A stretch of DNA of 64,000 bases, taken from NCBI GenBank assembly GCA_026785945.1, contig JAJAZD010000286.1:13063-77062 (forward strand), in the 5' to 3' direction. This document shows, in pieces, positions 55,283 to 64,000 of this stretch; the first letter of the stretch is position 1; the number at the start of each line of letters is the position of its first letter. The position numbers were made by a program, and so were the translations under genes. The notes beneath the pieces were generated by a model that searched no databases, was not told where the DNA came from, and worked only from the letters and a program-made list of their open reading frames with translations. The DNA is from Pseudonocardia sp. GTDB lineage: Bacteria > Actinomycetota > Actinomycetes > Mycobacteriales > Pseudonocardiaceae.

Positions 55283-56233
55283 TCAGACGTGATCGAGTGC
55301 CAGCAGCGCCGCACCGATCTTGCCGGCGTCGCCGCCGAACGCCGCGGGCACCACGGGGGCGACGCCCCGTGCGCCAGGCGCGTAGGCGAACTCGCGGGCC
55401 GCGGCCCTGGCGGGCGCCAGCAGCAGGTCACCGGTCTCCACGAGACCGCCGCCGACGACCACGGCGTCGACCTCGAAGATGTTGGCCAGCGACGCGATGC
55501 CGACGCCCAGCCACCGGCCCAGCCGTGCGAACAGCGCGGTCGCGACCTCGTCGCCCTGCTCGGCGGCGGTCGCCACGGTCTGGCCGGTCACCTCGCCCTG
55601 CTCGGCGCCCAGGCGCGCGATGAGCCCGCCGGGATCGTCGGTGGCCGCGTCCCGTCCCATCCGCGTCAGGGCGGTGCCCGAGGCGTACGCCTCGAAACAG
55701 CCGTGGTTGCCGCAGCCGCAGCGCGGGCCGTCGGGGTTGAGGACGATGTGGCCGAGTTCGGCGCCCATCCCCGTCGGGCCGCGGTAGATCGCGCCGTCGA
55801 AGACGAGACCGCCGCCGATACCGGTACCGACGGTCACCAGCACCATGTTGGGGTAAGGCTCGCCCAGGCGGGACTCGGCGAGCGCCGCCACGTTGGCATC
55901 GTTGTCGACGACGACGGGCAGCAGCGTGGCCTGCTCCAGCTGCGCACGCACGGGCCAGTTGCGGTAGGCGTTGTTCGGCGCCCACAGCATCCTCCCGACC
56001 GGCCACTCGACGAGGCCGGCCGCCCCGACGCCGATCGTCACCACCTCGGGGTGCGCGGCGCGGAGCCGGTCGATCAGGTCGAGCAGTACGGCCCTGACCG
56101 CCTCCGCGTCGGACTTCTCCGGCGTGGGCTCCACCAGCTCAGCCAGCACGGTGCCCTGCTCGTCGACCACCGCCCCGGCGATCTTGGTGCCGCCGATGTC
56201 GAGGCCGATCGCCCGCCGCGCGCTGCTCGTCAT
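55283..56233 (-). CDS. ROK family sugar kinase (glucokinase-like)
   Basis: GLDIGGTK, DNDANVAALAE, GTGIGGG, ELGH, CGCGNHGCFE. Confidence 0.92.
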   Translation of the reverse strand: MTSSARRAIGLDIGGTKIAGAVVDEQGTVLAELVEPTPEKSDAEAVRAVLLDLIDRLRAAHPEVVTIGVGAAGLVEWPVGRMLWAPNNAYRNWPVRAQLEQATLLPVVVDNDANVAALAESRLGEPYPNMVLVTVGTGIGGGLVFDGAIYRGPTGMGAELGHIVLNPDGPRCGCGNHGCFEAYASGTALTRMGRDAATDDPGGLIARLGAEQGEVTGQTVATAAEQGDEVATALFARLGRWLGVGIASLANIFEVDAVVVGGGLVETGDLLLAPARAAAREFAYAPGARGVAPVVPAAFGGDAGKIGAALLALDHV

Positions 56234-56296
56234 CGGCGCATGATCCCATCACGGCCCATCACGATTAGGGAGCGGGCTGTCCGGGTACGTTGCGGC

Positions 56297-57424
56297 ATGC
56301 TTCTTCGACGAGTCGCTCGGCCCCTGCTCGCGGGCATCTTCATCTACGGCGGCATCAACACCCTCAGGAACCCCCAGGGCCACGTACAGGTCGCGAAGCC
56401 GGTGCTGAACGCCGTCTCACCCGCGGTCGACCAGGTCGTCGAGGTGGCCCCCATCGACCACCGCCCGGACGACGAGCTGCTCGTCACGATCGACGGCGCG
56501 GTCAAGGTCGCGGCCGGCTCGCTCCTGGCGCTCGGCGTGTGGCCGCGTCTGGCGTCCGTGGCGCTGGCCGCGTCGCTCGTCCCGACGACCCTGGCCGGGC
56601 ACCGCTTCTGGGAGGCGACCGACCCCCAGGAGCGCACCGACCAGCAGATCCAGTTCCTCAAGAACCTCGGCCTGCTCGGCGGGCTGCTGATCGCCGCCGC
56701 CGACACCGAGGGCAAGCCCTCACTCGGTTGGCGCGGCCGCCGGGCCGCCTCGCTCGCCACCGCGGCCGCGGCGGCCCAGGCCTCGGCCCTGTCGCAGACC
56801 GCGTCCGACGTCTCGAACCGCGTCTCGGACGTCGCCCACGACGTCACCGGCCGCGTGACGGGCACGGCGCACGACGCCTCGGCCACCGTCGGCGGGATCG
56901 CCGCGGGCCTGGTCGGGCTCGCCCCCGGCGCCGGTGCGGCGATGTCCTCGCGCGCGTCCAAGGCGGGTGCGGACCTGTCCTCACGGGCGTCGGTGCTGAG
57001 CGAGGACTGGACCGCCCGTGCGGTCAAGGCCGCGAAGAGGGCCGAGAAGCGGGGAGTGAAGCTGCAGAAGCTGGCAGCCAGGAGGCGCAAGGAGCTGGAG
57101 AAGGTCGCGGGGAAGAAGCGCGCCGAGCTGGAGAAGGCCGCGGGGAAGAAGCGGGCCGAGCTGGAGCGCTCCGCGGGGAAGCGGTCCGCGTCGCTGCAGA
57201 AGCGGGCGTCCAAGCGGGTCGCCGAGCTGCAGAAGGCGGCGCAGGACAGCCGCGCCGAGCTGGAGAAGCGGGCCCCTGCCGTCATCGACCAGGTGACCAC
57301 CCAGGCCGCGAAGCTCGGGCACGACGTGGCCGAGCGCGCGTCCGCGGTGGGTGCCGAGGTCGTGCACCAGGCCGAGGGTGTGGCCAAGGACGCCCGCAAG
57401 CGGGCCCACGCGCTGACGCGCTGA
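56297..57424 (+). CDS. DoxX-family membrane protein with long C-terminal 11-mer helical repeats
   Basis: RPLLAGIFIYGG, TTLAGHRFWE, FLKNLGLLGGLL; KRAELEKAAGK-type repeats. Confidence 0.85.
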   Translation: MLLRRVARPLLAGIFIYGGINTLRNPQGHVQVAKPVLNAVSPAVDQVVEVAPIDHRPDDELLVTIDGAVKVAAGSLLALGVWPRLASVALAASLVPTTLAGHRFWEATDPQERTDQQIQFLKNLGLLGGLLIAAADTEGKPSLGWRGRRAASLATAAAAAQASALSQTASDVSNRVSDVAHDVTGRVTGTAHDASATVGGIAAGLVGLAPGAGAAMSSRASKAGADLSSRASVLSEDWTARAVKAAKRAEKRGVKLQKLAARRRKELEKVAGKKRAELEKAAGKKRAELERSAGKRSASLQKRASKRVAELQKAAQDSRAELEKRAPAVIDQVTTQAAKLGHDVAERASAVGAEVVHQAEGVAKDARKRAHALTR

Positions 57425-57600: not shown

Positions 57601-57675
57601 GGGGCGGTAGCTCAGCTGGTCAGAGCAGCGGACTCATAATCCGTCAGGTCGTGGGTTCGAACCCCACCCGCCCCA
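57601..57675 (+). tRNA. tRNA with CAT anticodon, most likely Ile2 (lysidine type); CCA not encoded
   Basis: GGGGCGG/CCGCCCC acceptor, TAGCTCAG D-arm, GCGGA-CTCATAA-TCCGT, GTGGG-TTCGAAC-CCCAC; lacks initiator C1:A72 and GGG:CCC features. Confidence 0.93.
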
Positions 57676-57732
57676 CATACGCGCAGGTCAGCGAGTCGCT
57701 GAGTCGCCTCCGGTACGCTACAGCGGTCCGAT

Positions 57733-57754: not shown

Positions 57755-57777
57755 CCGTGGCGGAGGGGGCGAGATCG

Positions 57778-59004
57778 ATGGCGCGACCACCGTTAGCGAT
57801 GGGTACCCACGGCAGCATCTCTGTGAAGAAGCCCGTGGGCGGCCCGAGTTGGGTCGCGCGTTGCCGGTTCCGCGACTTCGACGGTGTGACCCGCTCGCTG
57901 GAGTACGTCGGCCGGTCGAAGACGGCGGCCGCGGCTGCGTTGCAGGACGCGCTGCAGGACCGGATGGGTTCGCCGAAGGCCCAGCTGAGGCCGCAGTACA
58001 CGTTCGAGCGAGCCTCGGAGATGTGGCTGTCCAAGCTCGATGCCCAGGTGGCCGAGGGCACGCGGGCGACGACGACGGCTGACACCTACCGGCAGCGCCT
58101 GCGGTCGGTGATCCTCCCGGCGATGGGGCAGTGGCGGCTCTACGAGTGCACGGTGCCGCAGCTGGACGGCTTCTTCCGGGGCCTCACGGCGACCCAGAGC
58201 GCGCAGTCCCGTAGGACGATCCGGACTGTCGTCTCGTTGATCCTGCGGCTGGCCGTGCAGCACGAGGCAATCCGGGACAACCCCGTCCGGCACCTGGACC
58301 CGATCGAGTCCGGCTTGCGGAGGCCGCGGGCCCTCACCACCGCGGAGCGCAGTCGCTTCCTGGGGTGGATGGGTGGTGTGTCGGAGGACGAGACCGAAGC
58401 GCGGGCCCAGGCGGCAGCGCGCCGGCGCGACCTGCCCGACATCGTCACGTTCATGCTCGGCACCGGGGTGCGCATCGGTGAGGCCCTGGCGGTCCGGTGG
58501 TGCGATGTCGACCTCGAGGGCGTGCCTGTAGTCGACGGGGACGAGCTGCGTGCGGTGCCCATCGTCGCCATCACCGGGAACGTCGTGCGACACCGCGGGA
58601 AGGGTCTGCACCGGCACGCCGGCAAGACCGAGATGGCGTTGCGGATCGTGCCGCTGCCGCGGTTCGTCGTGGCGACGCTCGCTGCACGAGAGATGCATGG
58701 GCCGGAGGTGCCAGTCTTCCCAGCTGCGGGAAGCAAGCGGGCGGGCCTGAACTGGAAAGACCCGAACAACATGTCGACCTACATCCGCGAGGCACGCCAG
58801 GCGGCGGGGATGGATTGGCCGGTCACCAGTCACACCTTCCGCAAGACGGCTGCGACGGTCTGGCACGACTCCGGGCTGCTGACGGGTCGGCAGAAGGCGG
58901 ACCTGACTGGCCACGCGAAGATCAGCACGCTGACCGACATCTACGTCGCGCGAGGGGAGCTCCACCCGCAGGGGGCGGCAGTGATGGACGCCGCGTGGGC
59001 TTGA
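57778..59004 (+). CDS. Tyrosine site-specific integrase
   Basis: MARPPLAMGTHGSI N-terminus; R (GVRIGE), K (GKT), HxxR (HTFR), GH, Y (TDIY) all present. Confidence 0.93.
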   Translation: MARPPLAMGTHGSISVKKPVGGPSWVARCRFRDFDGVTRSLEYVGRSKTAAAAALQDALQDRMGSPKAQLRPQYTFERASEMWLSKLDAQVAEGTRATTTADTYRQRLRSVILPAMGQWRLYECTVPQLDGFFRGLTATQSAQSRRTIRTVVSLILRLAVQHEAIRDNPVRHLDPIESGLRRPRALTTAERSRFLGWMGGVSEDETEARAQAAARRRDLPDIVTFMLGTGVRIGEALAVRWCDVDLEGVPVVDGDELRAVPIVAITGNVVRHRGKGLHRHAGKTEMALRIVPLPRFVVATLAAREMHGPEVPVFPAAGSKRAGLNWKDPNNMSTYIREARQAAGMDWPVTSHTFRKTAATVWHDSGLLTGRQKADLTGHAKISTLTDIYVARGELHPQGAAVMDAAWA

Positions 59005-59165
59005 CACATGAATTGATCCTCGAACATTCAAATGTAACGCGTGCCGTGTTGGCCACTTAGGACTTGAATGTAACGTTCTCTTGCTCCACGGCGAAGTACA
59101 GGCGGAAGTTGTCAATAGTCCTGACATGACCTGCCAATGTACAAATTTTCCAGAATGGGGCCAGC

Positions 59166-62100
59166 GTGAGCGCGGCAGGACTCGAAGGTGCAGCTATCAA
59201 GTTCGGGATCACGATTGCGAATGCGGCGGTTCGAGCGATTGCCTCGCAGCAAGAGAAGCGCCAGATCTCAACGAAAGGTCTTGTCGAACTAGCTGATCAG
59301 CGGTTGTCGCCCATCAATCGTTGGGCAGCAAATCGAAGAATCGACGATATCGGCGAAAAGATTGCGCGCCGACTTGAGCCCCTGTACGCTAACGAATTTG
59401 TCGGTACGACTGACGACGACAGAAGCATGGTAATTGCGTTGGCGTCAAGTCTGATAGAGGAGGCAGATATAGATGACCGTATGCTATTTGACGTCGGCAT
59501 GTCTGCGAGGGTTCTTGCTGATCATATTTGGGGGTCTGCTCGAAAGAAAATTGTCCAATCACAGTTGGGATCACGAGACGAGGAATTACTTCAGAGGGCT
59601 TTGCTTGAGGGATGTCAGTGTCTGCTTCAGACCGTATTGATTCTGAAGCCGTTCGTGGCTCGAGCGATCTTGGAGGTGCTGGTCCAGCAGAAAGGCTTCG
59701 AAGATCGGTTAGATGAATTGCTGAGTCGGGGTCAGCGGCCTCTGTTCCGCTCTCGCATGGGGCCTGACGAAGAAGGATACCTTAGTGCGTACCAGGCTGT
59801 CGTTGTTGCGCAACTGGACCATCTTGACATCTTCGGAATCGAAGTCACGTCACGTTTGCGGTTGAAGCTCAGTCTAGGCTACCTCGGTCTTTCTGTGGAG
59901 ACTGAGAGCAGTGATTCCGTGATGAGGCCGGTCGACCCAAAGTATTACGTGGATAGCTCAGCTAATCAAACCCATAAGCTGCCAGTTACGGAAGCCTTTG
60001 GCAAGGGGCGGCGCTTCCTTGTTAGGGGTGAAGCTGGGTCCGGCAAGAGTACTCTTCTTCGGTGGATAGCAGTAACTGCGGCTCTGAAAGAGTTTACTGG
60101 TGATCTCCAGAGCTGGAATTCTCTAACTCCTTTCATGTTGAAGCTGCGTTCCTACGCGTCAAAGTCACTTCCTACAGTGGAGGAGCTCGTTAGAGATCTG
60201 GCTCCCAGTCTGTCGGATGCGAAGCCTGACGACTGGGTTCATCGGACTTTCAGCGCTGGAAACGGCCTATTGCTAATTGATGGACTGGATGAGCTTGAGG
60301 ATAGCAAACGCTACGAGGTACATGCATGGATAACTGGTCTACTAACGACATTCCCGGCATTGACAGTCATAGTTACTACCCGACCATCTGCAGTCGAGCC
60401 TAGATGGCTATCCGAAGTCAATTTTGTGTCCCTCGCGATCGAGCCGCTTTCCCCGCCGGAATGCCGGGCATTTGTCCATCGCTGGCATGATGCAGCCGCT
60501 GCTGCCGAATACCTGCCATGTGATGTCTCGGAGCTCCCCGTATATGAGAGCGGTCTTCTGCGTGAGTTGGACGCGAAACTGCACCTTAGGTCTCTCGCGT
60601 CCAGTCCACTTCTCGCTGCCATGATTTGCGCGCTCAACTTGGATCGCGACGGGCAGCTACCTGAGAGCCGTCGCGACTTGTACGAGTCTGCCCTTGACCT
60701 GCTCCTTGTCAGGCGGGATCGTAAACGAAACATCACCGCCAAGAACGTGCAGTTGACGAAATCAGCGAAGATTACCATTCTCAGGAATCTGGCACTGCAC
60801 CTGAGCCTCAACAATCGAACGGAGATATCTACTGCAGGCGCCTTATCGAATATTGCTCAGGCAATGAAAGTGCTTCCAGAGCAGCCGAATGAGCCTAATG
60901 AGGTGCTCGAATATCTGAAGCAGCGAAGCGGCGTGATTCGAGAACCGACAAATGGTCGACTCGACTTTATTCACAAGACATTCCAAGAATTCCTGACGGC
61001 CCAAGCGGTTGTGGAGCTGGACTTGACCGGACTGCTGATCGAGAACGCAGACAAGGATAGATGGCGTGAGGTGATCCTGATGTTTCCTGCGCAGGCCACC
61101 GAGCCTCAGCGGAAGATGCTGATACGTGGCCTTATTGATCGAGCTACCGATAGCTTGGGTCGACAGAGGTTGCAGTTGAGGTTGCTATCTGCGGTCTGCG
61201 CTCAATACCTGGTAAATAATCCGGCGCTTCGCGAGGAGACGTTGACGTTGATTGGCCAGGTACTTCCTCCTCGCGATCTTGCATCGGCCGCGATGCTTGC
61301 ATCAATGGGGGAATCTGTCTTGCCCATGTTGGCTCCTCGAATTGAGGATCTGGATGAATCGGCTGGGCTCGCATCGATAAAGACTGCAGCGATGATCGGG
61401 GGGCAGAGTGCGTTGAATCTTTTGTCACACTACGCATCTGACTCACGATCACGGCTTCAGCAAGCACTAATTGAATCTTGGGAGTATTTTCAATCTGAAG
61501 TTTTCGCGAGAGATGTCCTTAAGGATGCGGCACTTGATTCTGGATCCGTTACGCTCGCGACGACTAGACCTATCCGGCACTTGAGTCATCTCCGCAATAT
61601 TCGGCGACTACGAATTGATCTTGCACGACTTGTGCGAGATAGAGACCCGCGAATTCAAGAGGACCTCGCCTTTTTGGTTGACGTACCACAGCTGGTTCGA
61701 CTGGACCTCGATACGCGAGGAATTACTAACCTGTCGTTCTTGAACCAGCTAATATATATCGAAGAGTTGTCGCTCTGGGGCGCGGCTGGACTCGTGTCGG
61801 GAGATGTATTGCAAGGCATGGCCGCGTTGAAACGGCTATTGCTCAGTGAGGCGTTTTTGAAGGATGGACTGCAGTCGCTAGGCGGGGTGTTATCGAGACT
61901 TCAAACTCTCGGTCTGACGAGCATGATGGGGTCTGTCGACTTCAATCACTTGCTACCGGCGAATCTCCGAACATTGTCGCTACGAAAATGCAAAATAGTT
62001 GGATGGGAGCAAGTCTCCCGAATGTCTACTATCCAATCGCTACGAATCGAGCGCTGCACGACGATCGCCCTGCCGTTAAAGCACCTCTCAGAACTTAAGC

Positions 62101-62276
62101 AGCTCGCGCATCTCGCGATAATGAAGATGCCTGCGAATCTTGTCGCCGATCTCGGTGCTCTCGCTGAGATGGAATCGTTGTCCACTCTTGAAATAGATGT
62201 TCCGTTGTCGGCCGACTTGAGACAGAAGCTTGAAGATGGAGGCGTAGCCGTCAACTCGGCACGGCCGAGTCGTTGA
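59166..62276 (+). CDS. NACHT NTPase with N-terminal helical domain and C-terminal LRR-like repeats (bacterial NLR-like)
   Basis: Walker A GEAGSGKST (60027-53), Walker B LLLIDGLDE, TTRP, PLLAAMIC, FIHKTFQEFL, LxxLxL repeats; GC ~50-55% by eye. Confidence 0.88.
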   Translation: MSAAGLEGAAIKFGITIANAAVRAIASQQEKRQISTKGLVELADQRLSPINRWAANRRIDDIGEKIARRLEPLYANEFVGTTDDDRSMVIALASSLIEEADIDDRMLFDVGMSARVLADHIWGSARKKIVQSQLGSRDEELLQRALLEGCQCLLQTVLILKPFVARAILEVLVQQKGFEDRLDELLSRGQRPLFRSRMGPDEEGYLSAYQAVVVAQLDHLDIFGIEVTSRLRLKLSLGYLGLSVETESSDSVMRPVDPKYYVDSSANQTHKLPVTEAFGKGRRFLVRGEAGSGKSTLLRWIAVTAALKEFTGDLQSWNSLTPFMLKLRSYASKSLPTVEELVRDLAPSLSDAKPDDWVHRTFSAGNGLLLIDGLDELEDSKRYEVHAWITGLLTTFPALTVIVTTRPSAVEPRWLSEVNFVSLAIEPLSPPECRAFVHRWHDAAAAAEYLPCDVSELPVYESGLLRELDAKLHLRSLASSPLLAAMICALNLDRDGQLPESRRDLYESALDLLLVRRDRKRNITAKNVQLTKSAKITILRNLALHLSLNNRTEISTAGALSNIAQAMKVLPEQPNEPNEVLEYLKQRSGVIREPTNGRLDFIHKTFQEFLTAQAVVELDLTGLLIENADKDRWREVILMFPAQATEPQRKMLIRGLIDRATDSLGRQRLQLRLLSAVCAQYLVNNPALREETLTLIGQVLPPRDLASAAMLASMGESVLPMLAPRIEDLDESAGLASIKTAAMIGGQSALNLLSHYASDSRSRLQQALIESWEYFQSEVFARDVLKDAALDSGSVTLATTRPIRHLSHLRNIRRLRIDLARLVRDRDPRIQEDLAFLVDVPQLVRLDLDTRGITNLSFLNQLIYIEELSLWGAAGLVSGDVLQGMAALKRLLLSEAFLKDGLQSLGGVLSRLQTLGLTSMMGSVDFNHLLPANLRTLSLRKCKIVGWEQVSRMSTIQSLRIERCTTIALPLKHLSELKQLAHLAIMKMPANLVADLGALAEMESLSTLEIDVPLSADLRQKLEDGGVAVNSARPSR

Positions 62277-62523
62277 TGCGTTGGCCCTCCTGAGAGCCGT
62301 TCATGCATTTGATAGTTGCGCGGGCCGCGCGGGACTCGACGTCCGGGACCGCCGTCTGCGCCTGCGCCGAAGTGCTCAAGAAGGCTGCAAGGTGTGCCGT
62401 CGAGTGGCGTCCAGATGTCGACATGCTGCTCGGCGGACGGGCCAAGAACTGATCGGACGTGCCGCGGGTGTTGTCGAGATGGGAGCATGTTGGTGACGTT
62501 GAGCCAACCGATCGGAGCGGTGC

Positions 62524-63182
62524 ATGGGCAAGCAGGTAGGCGTGGGGGCGCGGTGGCTCCACGTGGCTGAGACCGTGGCCGCTGCTCCGCCCGATGGGTC
62601 GGACGTCGGCGAGGTGATTCGCTGGTATCGCCAACGTGAGGGGCTGACCCAGCAGGACGCGGCGACGCTGCTCAACACGACGCAGTCCCGGCTGTCGAAG
62701 CTGGAGAAGGGCTCGCAGGCTCTCCGTGACATCGTCGAGCTGCGCCACGTCGCGAGCAAGCTCGGCATCCCGCCGGAACGGCTGGGGGTACTGCCGGACC
62801 GTTCGGGCGACGCCACGCCACGTGCCGAGGCGGTCAGCCTCGATCCGGGGCCAGTTCGCGATAGCCAGGAGCGGTGGCGGGGGGTCCGGGCCGAGTTGAA
62901 CGGGCATCGGGCGCTGCTTGGCGACTTGGCGTCTGACCTCTACCCGGCCGAGCAGCGAATCGCCGGGACGAGCGTCCTGACTGCCGAGGGTTGGATGCCG
63001 GACGAGCCCGTGGACCTGGCGGCCGTCGAGGTGCAGTGGTTGCCTGAGTCCCCGCCGTCGGACATCACAGGCAAGGCGCTCGAGGCCGCCGGGTCCCGCG
63101 CGGCGCTGCCGTCGGGCAAGCCTTATGACCGGTACTCCCGCGCGCTGAGGGATCTCGCCCGGCCGAAGCTGTTCGACAACCG
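62524..63182 (+). pseudogene. XRE-family HTH protein, copy 1, 3'-truncated
   Basis: VIRWYRQREGLTQQDAATLLNTTQSRLSKLEKG; similarity to copy 2 stops at LFDNR, then ORF runs out of frame to 63270. Confidence 0.8.
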
Positions 63183-63256
63183 ACATCTATGTCGCCCGCG
63201 GGGAGCTCCACCCGCGCGGGGCAGCCGTCATGGACGCCGCGTGGATGGACACCTGA
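63182..63256 (+). pseudogene. 3' tail of a second tyrosine integrase
   Basis: Encodes DIYVARGELHPRGAAVMDAAWMDT*, 20/21 aa identical to the int C-terminus at 58936-58998, with synonymous differences. Confidence 0.88.
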
Positions 63257-63344
63257 CGTTGCGAGCGTGAGGATCACGCTCGCTCGAAGGTGAGAGCATG
63301 TCCCGGACGGCGGCGGGCAATCGATCGGGGCGGGGCGCGTGGGA

Positions 63345-64000
63345 ATGCCAGCAGATGCGGAGGAACGGTGGCTGCACGTGGCTGAGACCGTGGTGGCGGC
63401 GCCACCGGACGGGTCCGATGTCGGCGAGGTGATTCGCTGGTACCGCCAACGTGAGGGCCTGACCCAGCAGGACGCGGCCGCGCTGCTGAACACGACGCAA
63501 TCGCGGCTCTCGAAGCTGGAGAAGGGCTCCCAGGCCCTTCGGGACGTCGTCGAGCTGCGGCATATCGCGAGCAAGCTCGGTATCCCACCGGAGCGGCTGG
63601 GGGTGCTCCCGGATCGTTCGGGTGACGCCACCCCCCGTGCGGAGACGGTCAGCCTCGATCCGGGACCGGCGCGCGACGGTCAGGAGCGGTGGCGGGCCGT
63701 GCGGGCCGAGTTGAACGCGAATCGTGCGAGGCTCGGAGACCTCGCGGCCGACCTCTACCCGCAGGAGCGGCGCATCCCCGGGACGAGCGTCCTTACCGCC
63801 GCCGGGTGGGTGCCCGACGAGCCCGTGGACCTGGCGGCCGTTGAGCTGCTCTGGCTACCCGAGTCCCCGCCGCCGGAGATCACGGGCAAGGCGCCCGAGG
63901 CGGCCGGGTCCCGCGCGGTGCTGCCGTCCGGGAAGCCCTACGACCGGTACTCGCGCGCTTTACGGGACCTCGCCCGACCGACGTTGTTCGACAACCGGGT
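63345..64000 (+). CDS. XRE-family HTH protein with uncharacterised C-terminal domain, copy 2, partial
   Basis: ATG 63345 (or GTG 63378) open to window end; WLHVAETV..VIRWYRQREGLTQQDAAALLNTTQSRLSKLEKG..YDRYSRALRDLARPTLFDNR. Confidence 0.85.
   Translation, partial: MPADAEERWLHVAETVVAAPPDGSDVGEVIRWYRQREGLTQQDAAALLNTTQSRLSKLEKGSQALRDVVELRHIASKLGIPPERLGVLPDRSGDATPRAETVSLDPGPARDGQERWRAVRAELNANRARLGDLAADLYPQERRIPGTSVLTAAGWVPDEPVDLAAVELLWLPESPPPEITGKAPEAAGSRAVLPSGKPYDRYSRALRDLARPTLFDNR

Follow-up and report, generated by a model that had tools for sequence, protein, structure and literature searches.

A foreign NNH1-NACHT-LRR gene beside the integrase of a Pseudonocardia tRNA-Met element, a candidate single-gene abortive-infection sensor

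The NNH1 domain was named in the survey of bacterial NACHT (bNACHT) proteins by Kibby et al. (10.1101/2022.07.19.500537). In the NACHT tree of that survey (Table S1), clade 4 holds the NNH1-containing architectures with leucine-rich repeats (LRRs) together with actinomycete NACHT+LRR proteins, and one NNH1 protein falls in clade 2 (10.1101/2022.07.19.500537). Among the proteins described there, bNACHT16 of Vibrio campbellii is reported to bear LRRs (10.1101/2022.07.19.500537), and the growth of Escherichia coli was inhibited by bNACHT16 mutants at the conserved winged-helix domain (WHD) histidine and by T584P (10.1101/2022.07.19.500537). Low-GC, rare defense systems borne on mobile elements have also been reported in Actinobacteria (PMC10482375). 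Here, we analyzed 64,000 nucleotides of Pseudonocardia sp. DNA (assembly GCA_026785945.1, contig JAJAZD010000286.1, positions 13,063 to 77,062 of the forward strand; this whole stretch is referred to as the window), with a focus on a low-GC gene at 59166..62276 (+) that encodes an NNH1-NACHT-HEAT-like-LRR protein and lies beside the integrase gene of a putative integrative element at a tRNA-Met gene.

The gene starts with GTG and encodes 1036 amino acids in an uninterrupted open reading frame (ORF). The start codon is credible, as the N terminus matches the family consensus start (M.LE.AAL.VG). Along the protein, NNH1 (residues 1-218) is followed by a linker (219-282), the nucleotide-binding domain (NBD; 283-445), helical domain 1 (HD1) and the WHD (to ∼617, including H603), a helical array (620-790), and the LRRs (794-1031). 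Pfam NNH1 (PF22733) matched the N terminus at an E value of 2e-25 (90.3 bits against a cutoff of 27; profile positions 1-176 of 177), and Pfam NACHT matched at 8e-24, also over its cutoff; HEAT_2 gave a weak match. Walker A (GEAGSGKST, 288-296), Walker B (LLLIDGLDE, 368-376), and the winged-helix motif FIHKTFQEF (601-609) are invariant columns in a 54-sequence family alignment, and the protein keeps 40/40 of the residues that are invariant in this alignment, R406 and the WHD residue His603 included. The intact gene and motifs that an earlier note had read from the letters of this DNA were thus borne out.

We modeled the full-length protein with AlphaFold2 from the same alignment (mean predicted local distance difference test score [pLDDT], 83.9; predicted template-modeling score [pTM], 0.70). 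The model consists of a helical head (residues 2-218), a short beta linker, an NBD-HD1-WHD module, a helical array, and an LRR solenoid. By sequence, the LRRs stay below threshold (LRR_4, E = 3e-5, 24.4 bits against a cutoff of 27; internalin B, E = 0.006); in the model, residues 794-1031 form ∼10 regular beta-alpha LRR units, in agreement with the LRR-like repeats noted earlier. The top PDB matches of the model in Foldseek were NLRC4 (E = 2e-18), NLRP3, and NOD2 (E values from 2e-18 to 1e-16, with >900 aligned columns), which upholds the previous description of the gene as a NACHT-LRR gene resembling those of nucleotide-binding LRR (NLR) proteins, and its tail matched internalin and Roco LRR domains. 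The protein has the features of a bNACHT, namely, a NACHT-type STAND NTPase with Walker A/B and a WHD histidine in a tripartite effector-NACHT-repeat layout, as well as those of the bNACHT16 type (NNH1-NACHT-LRR), with NNH1 over the gathering score and C-terminal LRRs by predicted structure. We read the gene product as a bacterial NLR-related protein that stands alone and is of the NNH1-NACHT-LRR type.

Among the tested relatives, the closest is bNACHT16, with 27% identity over residues 17-415 (E = 8e-44); this comparison covers the first 399 residues of bNACHT16, as printed in Table S2 of Kibby et al., which themselves match Pfam NNH1 (E = 1e-24) and NACHT. The toxicity of the bNACHT16 mutants is the sole functional evidence for the architecture and suggests that the switched-on protein alone can harm the cell. 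We consider it reasonably likely that the Pseudonocardia gene encodes a single-gene abortive-infection sensor, in which recognition by the repeats leads to NACHT oligomerization and then to NNH1-dependent toxicity. At rest, the LRR/HEAT-like sensor would lock the NACHT module, with ADP bound, in a closed state, as happens in NLRC4 and NOD2. The repeats would sense an invader cue, from a phage or otherwise, in the form of a protein or a host perturbation, and nucleotide exchange would permit NACHT oligomerization. Clustered NNH1 helical bundles would then stop the growth of the infected cell or kill it (abortive infection), thereby protecting the clone and the element that bears the gene. We favor this reading because of the architecture, the intact switch residues, the bNACHT16 toxicity, the self-contained cassette, its foreign origin, and its rarity in the genus, and because the integrase-adjacent position in related elements holds a PDC-S19 candidate, a low-GC Mrr_N cassette, and an SNase-like protein (the last three are described below). 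We infer three points: a role against phages in this host, the nature of the trigger, and the way in which NNH1 harms the cell.

Several results weigh against an abortive-infection sensor. bNACHT16 did not defend E. coli against the phage panel, its "Phage Defense" entry being blank (10.1101/2022.07.19.500537), and an anti-phage role for any actinomycete NNH1-NACHT-LRR protein is a prediction. None of the PADLOC system models, Avs included, matched the protein, the only hits being P-loop-level similarities to mad8 (E = 1.5e-4) and PtuA (E = 3e-3). The EruA model (NCBIfam NF058535) gave 32.6 bits over residues 474-615, where at least 1000 are needed, and a literature search on EruA returned no match. 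For the head domain, a Foldseek search with a separate NNH1 model returned no relative (best PDB E value, 0.25, with a template-modeling score of ≤0.2; best BFVD E value, 0.07), a hydrophobicity scan found no transmembrane-grade segment in NNH1 (maximum 19-residue Kyte-Doolittle mean, 1.56), and several otherwise conserved NNH1 consensus positions are altered in this protein. At the DNA level, the leader of the gene has no sigma-70-type consensus promoter, and silencing of the 3.3-kb low-GC cassette by Lsr2 is possible, such DNA being a typical target of xenogeneic silencing. Finally, many Pseudonocardiaceae carry up to 6 NNH1-NACHT paralogs per genome, at native GC, which fits non-phage roles.

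To further characterize the head domain, we examined NNH1 on its own and across its family. The N-terminal ∼218 residues are all helical in the AlphaFold2 model, and NNH1 was the sole match in a Pfam scan of residues 1-275 at E values up to 10. The separate model had a pLDDT of 65, with a core above 85, and in Foldseek it matched none of the HeLo, MLKL, coiled-coil (CC), or Death-like folds. The earlier note had called the N terminus helical, which it is in the model, and had seen no TIR, Sir2, or nuclease motif in it; it had also called it unrecognizable and uncharacterized, which does not hold, as the family is already named in Pfam and bNACHT16, of the same architecture, has been tested. 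A profile of the N-terminal 275 residues matched 1850 clusters at 50% identity, 528 of them at E ≤1e-30, and the family profile recovers the Pseudonocardia protein at an E value of 4e-78. In nearly all of the best 150 of these 1850 clusters, NNH1 begins at residue 1-10, and the proteins are ∼1000-1130 amino acids long. An exception within the family is protein P0223, which has a 400-amino-acid extension ahead of NNH1. Table S1 of Kibby et al. also lists calcineurin-like+NNH1+NACHT+LRR proteins, in which the phosphoesterase precedes a short NNH1 match (10.1101/2022.07.19.500537).

Because NNH1 is not N terminal in these last members, and because it shows neither an enzymatic motif nor a structural relative, it might instead be an adaptor or regulatory spacer that signals to an unlinked host or element factor, or the whole protein might be a regulator. 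We regard this as very doubtful. Hyperactive Vibrio bNACHT16 needs no added partner to be toxic in E. coli, the cassette contains one gene only, and NNH1 has a terminal position in nearly all of the best 150 clusters.

The protein stands apart from its relatives. In a search of 5.8 billion proteins, the best full-length matches were actinomycete "NACHT domain-containing proteins" with 34-37% identity at 97% coverage (E values down to 1e-162), and the best partial matches reached 41-44%. Within the alignment it is the most isolated member, as its identity to any other sequence peaks at 36%; among the remaining sequences, the average is 44% and the highest value 89%. Relatives from the same genus are 39-40% identical and have native GC, those on plasmids are only 29-38% identical, and no homolog was found in the phage collection. 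Across the family, NNH1 genes were present in 46 of the 151 genomes sampled (30 of 60 genera); in the genus, just 7 of 121 genomes had them. By these comparisons, the protein is an orphan lineage and a very divergent member of a catalogued and partly tested family, not a system of a new kind. Of the partial relatives, the closest, with 44% identity in the NACHT part, lies on an ENA metagenome contig (L042:5145-8530), where it is called as three ORFs (NNH1, NACHT, and LRR), a split that is probably due to frameshift errors; an Integrase_N_phage gene and an HTH_17 excisionase-type gene are nearby. The genome under study also encodes a second NACHT protein (L004; C23:1225-1971), with an HTH_31-NACHT-HEAT arrangement in a 914-amino-acid frame, which looks like a regulator.

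The native-GC paralogs, up to 6 per genome in many Pseudonocardiaceae, are consistent with a different role, that of an NLR-like cell-death or self/non-self switch connected with the multicellular, filamentous growth of actinomycetes, or of a sensor of plasmids or competing integrative elements rather than phages. The element would then keep the gene because rivals are excluded or the element itself is stabilized. The failure of bNACHT16 to defend in the tested phage panel fits such a role, as does the setting of the gene, a composite formed by two related elements in competition for one tRNA-Met site. Yet, the copy studied here is single, foreign, element borne, and rare in the genus, the usual signature of defense cargo; relatives of the element have defense candidates at neighboring positions, and no amyloid-signaling or partner gene is present. 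We therefore judge a non-phage switch to be unlikely and retain the abortive-infection sensor as the preferred reading.

The base composition sets the gene apart from its surroundings. It has 52.8% GC, with 54.9% at third codon positions (GC3), and the deviation is even across all domains. The adjacent integrase gene, int1, has 69.9% GC (GC3, 88.5%), the xre copies downstream have a GC3 of 86%, and the GC content of the draft genome (4.46 Mb) is 72.4%. The contrast between a gene of ∼50-55% GC and high-GC flanks, which the earlier note had pointed out, is therefore real, and so is its picture of a single foreign gene as the sole cargo between int and xre: the ratio of gene to genome GC is 0.73, and the cassette has no partner gene between int1 and xre1. 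As the first and second codon positions are shifted as well as GC3, the donor genome probably had roughly 50-55% GC. Composition thus indicates that the gene is horizontally acquired, as a ∼3.3-kb low-GC cassette. Its leader (59005..59165, +; 47.8% GC) holds two exact AATGTAACG direct repeats at 59031-59039 and 59067-59075, 36 bp apart, which may be an operator or promoter element imported with the cassette.

Such a recent arrival could also be inert passenger DNA, silenced (for example, by Lsr2) or poorly translated through its codon usage. A GC3 of 55% means no amelioration, the gene contains five TTA codons along with numerous further rare codons, Lsr2 is encoded twice in the genome (C11:3464-3637 and C227:12444-12614), no consensus promoter was found, and the element around the gene has partly decayed, xre1 being truncated and int2 reduced to a stump. 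Against this, a frame of 1036 codons has stayed open in 53% GC DNA, where stops are frequent, all invariant family residues are kept, and the cassette retains its own upstream leader. We consider an inert passenger highly improbable.

We then reconstructed the locus around the cassette. The tRNA-Met gene (anticodon CAT; 57601..57676, +; ARAGORN) is the probable integration target of the element family. It is followed by int1 (57757..59004, +), which encodes a 415-amino-acid tyrosine recombinase with Pfam Phage_integrase and Phage_int_M matches. The C terminus of int1 is two codons short, ending in AAWA-stop where every relative ends in AAW-x-D-x-stop, and DNA of 48% GC follows directly. Because the end of int1 departs from all relatives in this way, the left edge of the cassette lies inside int1. 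The right edge lies in the spacer between the NACHT gene and xre1 (62277..62523, +), between ∼62320, until which the GC content is low, and ∼62482, from which homology to the region upstream of the sibling gene xre2 resumes. We saw no sign of a transposase, a target duplication, or terminal repeats at the cassette. An assembly chimera was considered as the source of the low-GC block and appears unlikely, as the two flanks come from one element family and the left junction falls within the reading frame of int. Just upstream of the tRNA-Met gene, inside a long ORF at 55289-57424, 33-bp tandem repeats that encode (A/K)KRAELEKAAG-like units occupy positions 57041-57268.

Downstream of the cassette, xre1 (62524..63178, +; Pfam HTH_31) is a remnant with an intact helix-turn-helix (HTH) region that is cut after codon ∼218 of 491; it is 85-89% identical to residues 1-220 of xre2. 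Across an ACCG microhomology, it is joined in frame to a 3′ stump of another integrase gene, int2 (63179..63257, +; repeat D7), which is 88% identical to the int1 3′ end at 58933-58998 and shares 78-82% identity with other integrase genes at their 3′ ends. The stump is followed, after 81 bp, by xre2 (63339..64000, +), the 5′ part of a gene for a 491-amino-acid HTH protein that runs past the window. The short int-to-xre interval that the earlier note had ascribed to a sibling element is thus real; the sibling itself is a stump left by a deletion, with no second intact element. The simplest history consistent with these junctions is that two related elements were stacked at one tRNA-Met gene and that a microhomology deletion then removed the remainder of element 1 together with most of int2. 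The xre1/int2 fusion ORF (62524-63270; 248 amino acids) has an intact HTH at residues 28-86 and could still bind xre2 operators. In the complete xre2 (L005:8402-9877), the C-terminal part of ∼400 residues has no Pfam match.

Beyond xre2, the backbone of the element continues to the contig end, 3.3 kb outside the window, with genes for an epimerase, a divergent HTH regulator, an excisionase-like protein, and a membrane protein. This contig does not reach the far end of the element. The only candidate found for the far attachment (att) site is a degenerate 35-nucleotide copy of the tRNA-Met gene, 88% identical, at C177:3171-3215. This copy covers the part from the anticodon to the T arm, lies outside any tRNA gene, and may be what is left of an attR site from this element or from an older one.

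To see how far this arrangement is shared, we collected loci with related integrases. Homologs of int1 with 75-84% identity occur in about a dozen Pseudonocardia/Pseudonocardiaceae genomes. At 9 of 14 loci, a tRNA-Met gene lies at the corresponding position immediately upstream of int; two more distant loci have tRNA-Leu instead, and the remaining three have no upstream sequence or no nearby tRNA. Similarity ends with the stop codon of the integrase gene in all loci but the group L010, L011, and L017, in which int is followed by a different XRE-family regulator and, in L017, then by a flavoprotein and an SNase-like protein. In L006, an 82%-identical integrase is directly followed by a 3-kb low-GC (53-58%) block (L006:1400-4400) that encodes proteins of 326 and 168 amino acids without a family match and a 257-amino-acid Mrr_N protein. 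The 168-amino-acid protein has an RNNVIH motif (Rx4H, HEPN-like), and the block may be an undescribed defense cassette. A low-GC coiled-coil protein follows int in L007, and in L020 a WS/DGAT gene lies ∼1.8 kb after int. In L009, from a metagenome-assembled Sciscionella genome with an integrase of 77% identity, the first gene after int (1530-2633, −) contains DUF3644 and is a candidate defense gene matched by PADLOC PDC-S19 (E = 1e-157). Next comes a fragment of the C-terminal part of Cas1 (L009:3115-3606, +). Excisionase-like and membrane genes are common to the window element, L006, L010, and L017, and L010 carries a type IV secretion system (T4SS) coupling protein. With its integrase, the adjacent tRNA-Met gene, and the shared backbone, the element in the window is probably an integrative one at tRNA-Met, and probably conjugative.

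The earlier note had also proposed a swappable cargo slot between int and xre. The content after int differs in nearly every locus, so the region next to int is variable, as proposed. The int-to-xre slot does not stand as a conserved unit: an xre2-type gene lay beside the related integrase in 0 of 14 loci, and the int-to-xre2 arrangement was seen only in this genome. Judged across about a dozen loci, the int-proximal region is variable and sometimes holds defense-type genes.

Two wider readings can be drawn from the locus: that NNH1 is an unrecognized cell-death executioner or that the int-stop junction is a recurrent capture point for foreign defense cassettes. Taken jointly, we rate them as quite unlikely. 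If the former were true, a soluble helical bundle would be toxic once clustered by NACHT, and NNH1-NACHT-LRR proteins would be bacterial counterparts of plant resistosomes. If the latter were true, tRNA-Met elements would gain cassettes at the int stop; the left edge of the present cassette is two codons inside int, and int likewise borders on low-GC DNA in L006 and L007. In either case, a divergent, intact protein that is the sole cargo of a small, well-delimited cassette offers a convenient single-gene test case for the NNH1 head. The locus is also a clean example of how defense cargo enters high-GC actinomycete genomes, with stacked elements that collapsed at a 4-bp microhomology, so that an integrase, the sensor, and a regulator stump remain. 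What sets it apart is that the cassette sits precisely at the 3′ end of the integrase gene, that the tandem element has collapsed, and that the sequence is an orphan.

Compared with the animal NLRs, the protein shares with NLRC4, NLRP3, and NOD2 the NACHT and LRR regions that align in the best structural matches, as well as the WHD histidine and the model of ADP-locked autoinhibition. Unlike them, to which it is 14-16% identical, it has at its head NNH1, which is unrelated to the CARD or PYD effectors of the animal proteins, and it is not known to use a downstream adaptor. With bNACHT16, it has in common the NNH1 head followed by NACHT and C-terminal LRRs, the single-gene organization, and a conserved WHD histidine, mutation of which activates bNACHT16 and whose equivalent is H603. 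bNACHT16 differs in being gammaproteobacterial and only 27% identical, and the Pseudonocardia protein is 86 residues longer, with a HEAT-like helical array before the LRRs. The actinomycete NNH1-NACHT-LRR proteins (from Actinomadura, Nocardiopsis, Saccharopolyspora, Amycolatopsis, and others) are alike in architecture, in length, and in the 40 invariant columns; in contrast, their genes have native high GC, and none among those examined adjoins this type of integrase. At the level of the element, the locus resembles defense hotspots of integrative elements and prophages, such as those of P2/P4, and the low-GC defense systems on actinobacterial mobile elements (PMC10482375) in its variable, often low-GC cargo beside a conserved integrase, with contents that differ between related elements. 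It departs from these in being a Pseudonocardia tRNA-Met element of a family with a T4SS coupling protein, in which, across a dozen loci, two cargos have a defense-family match.

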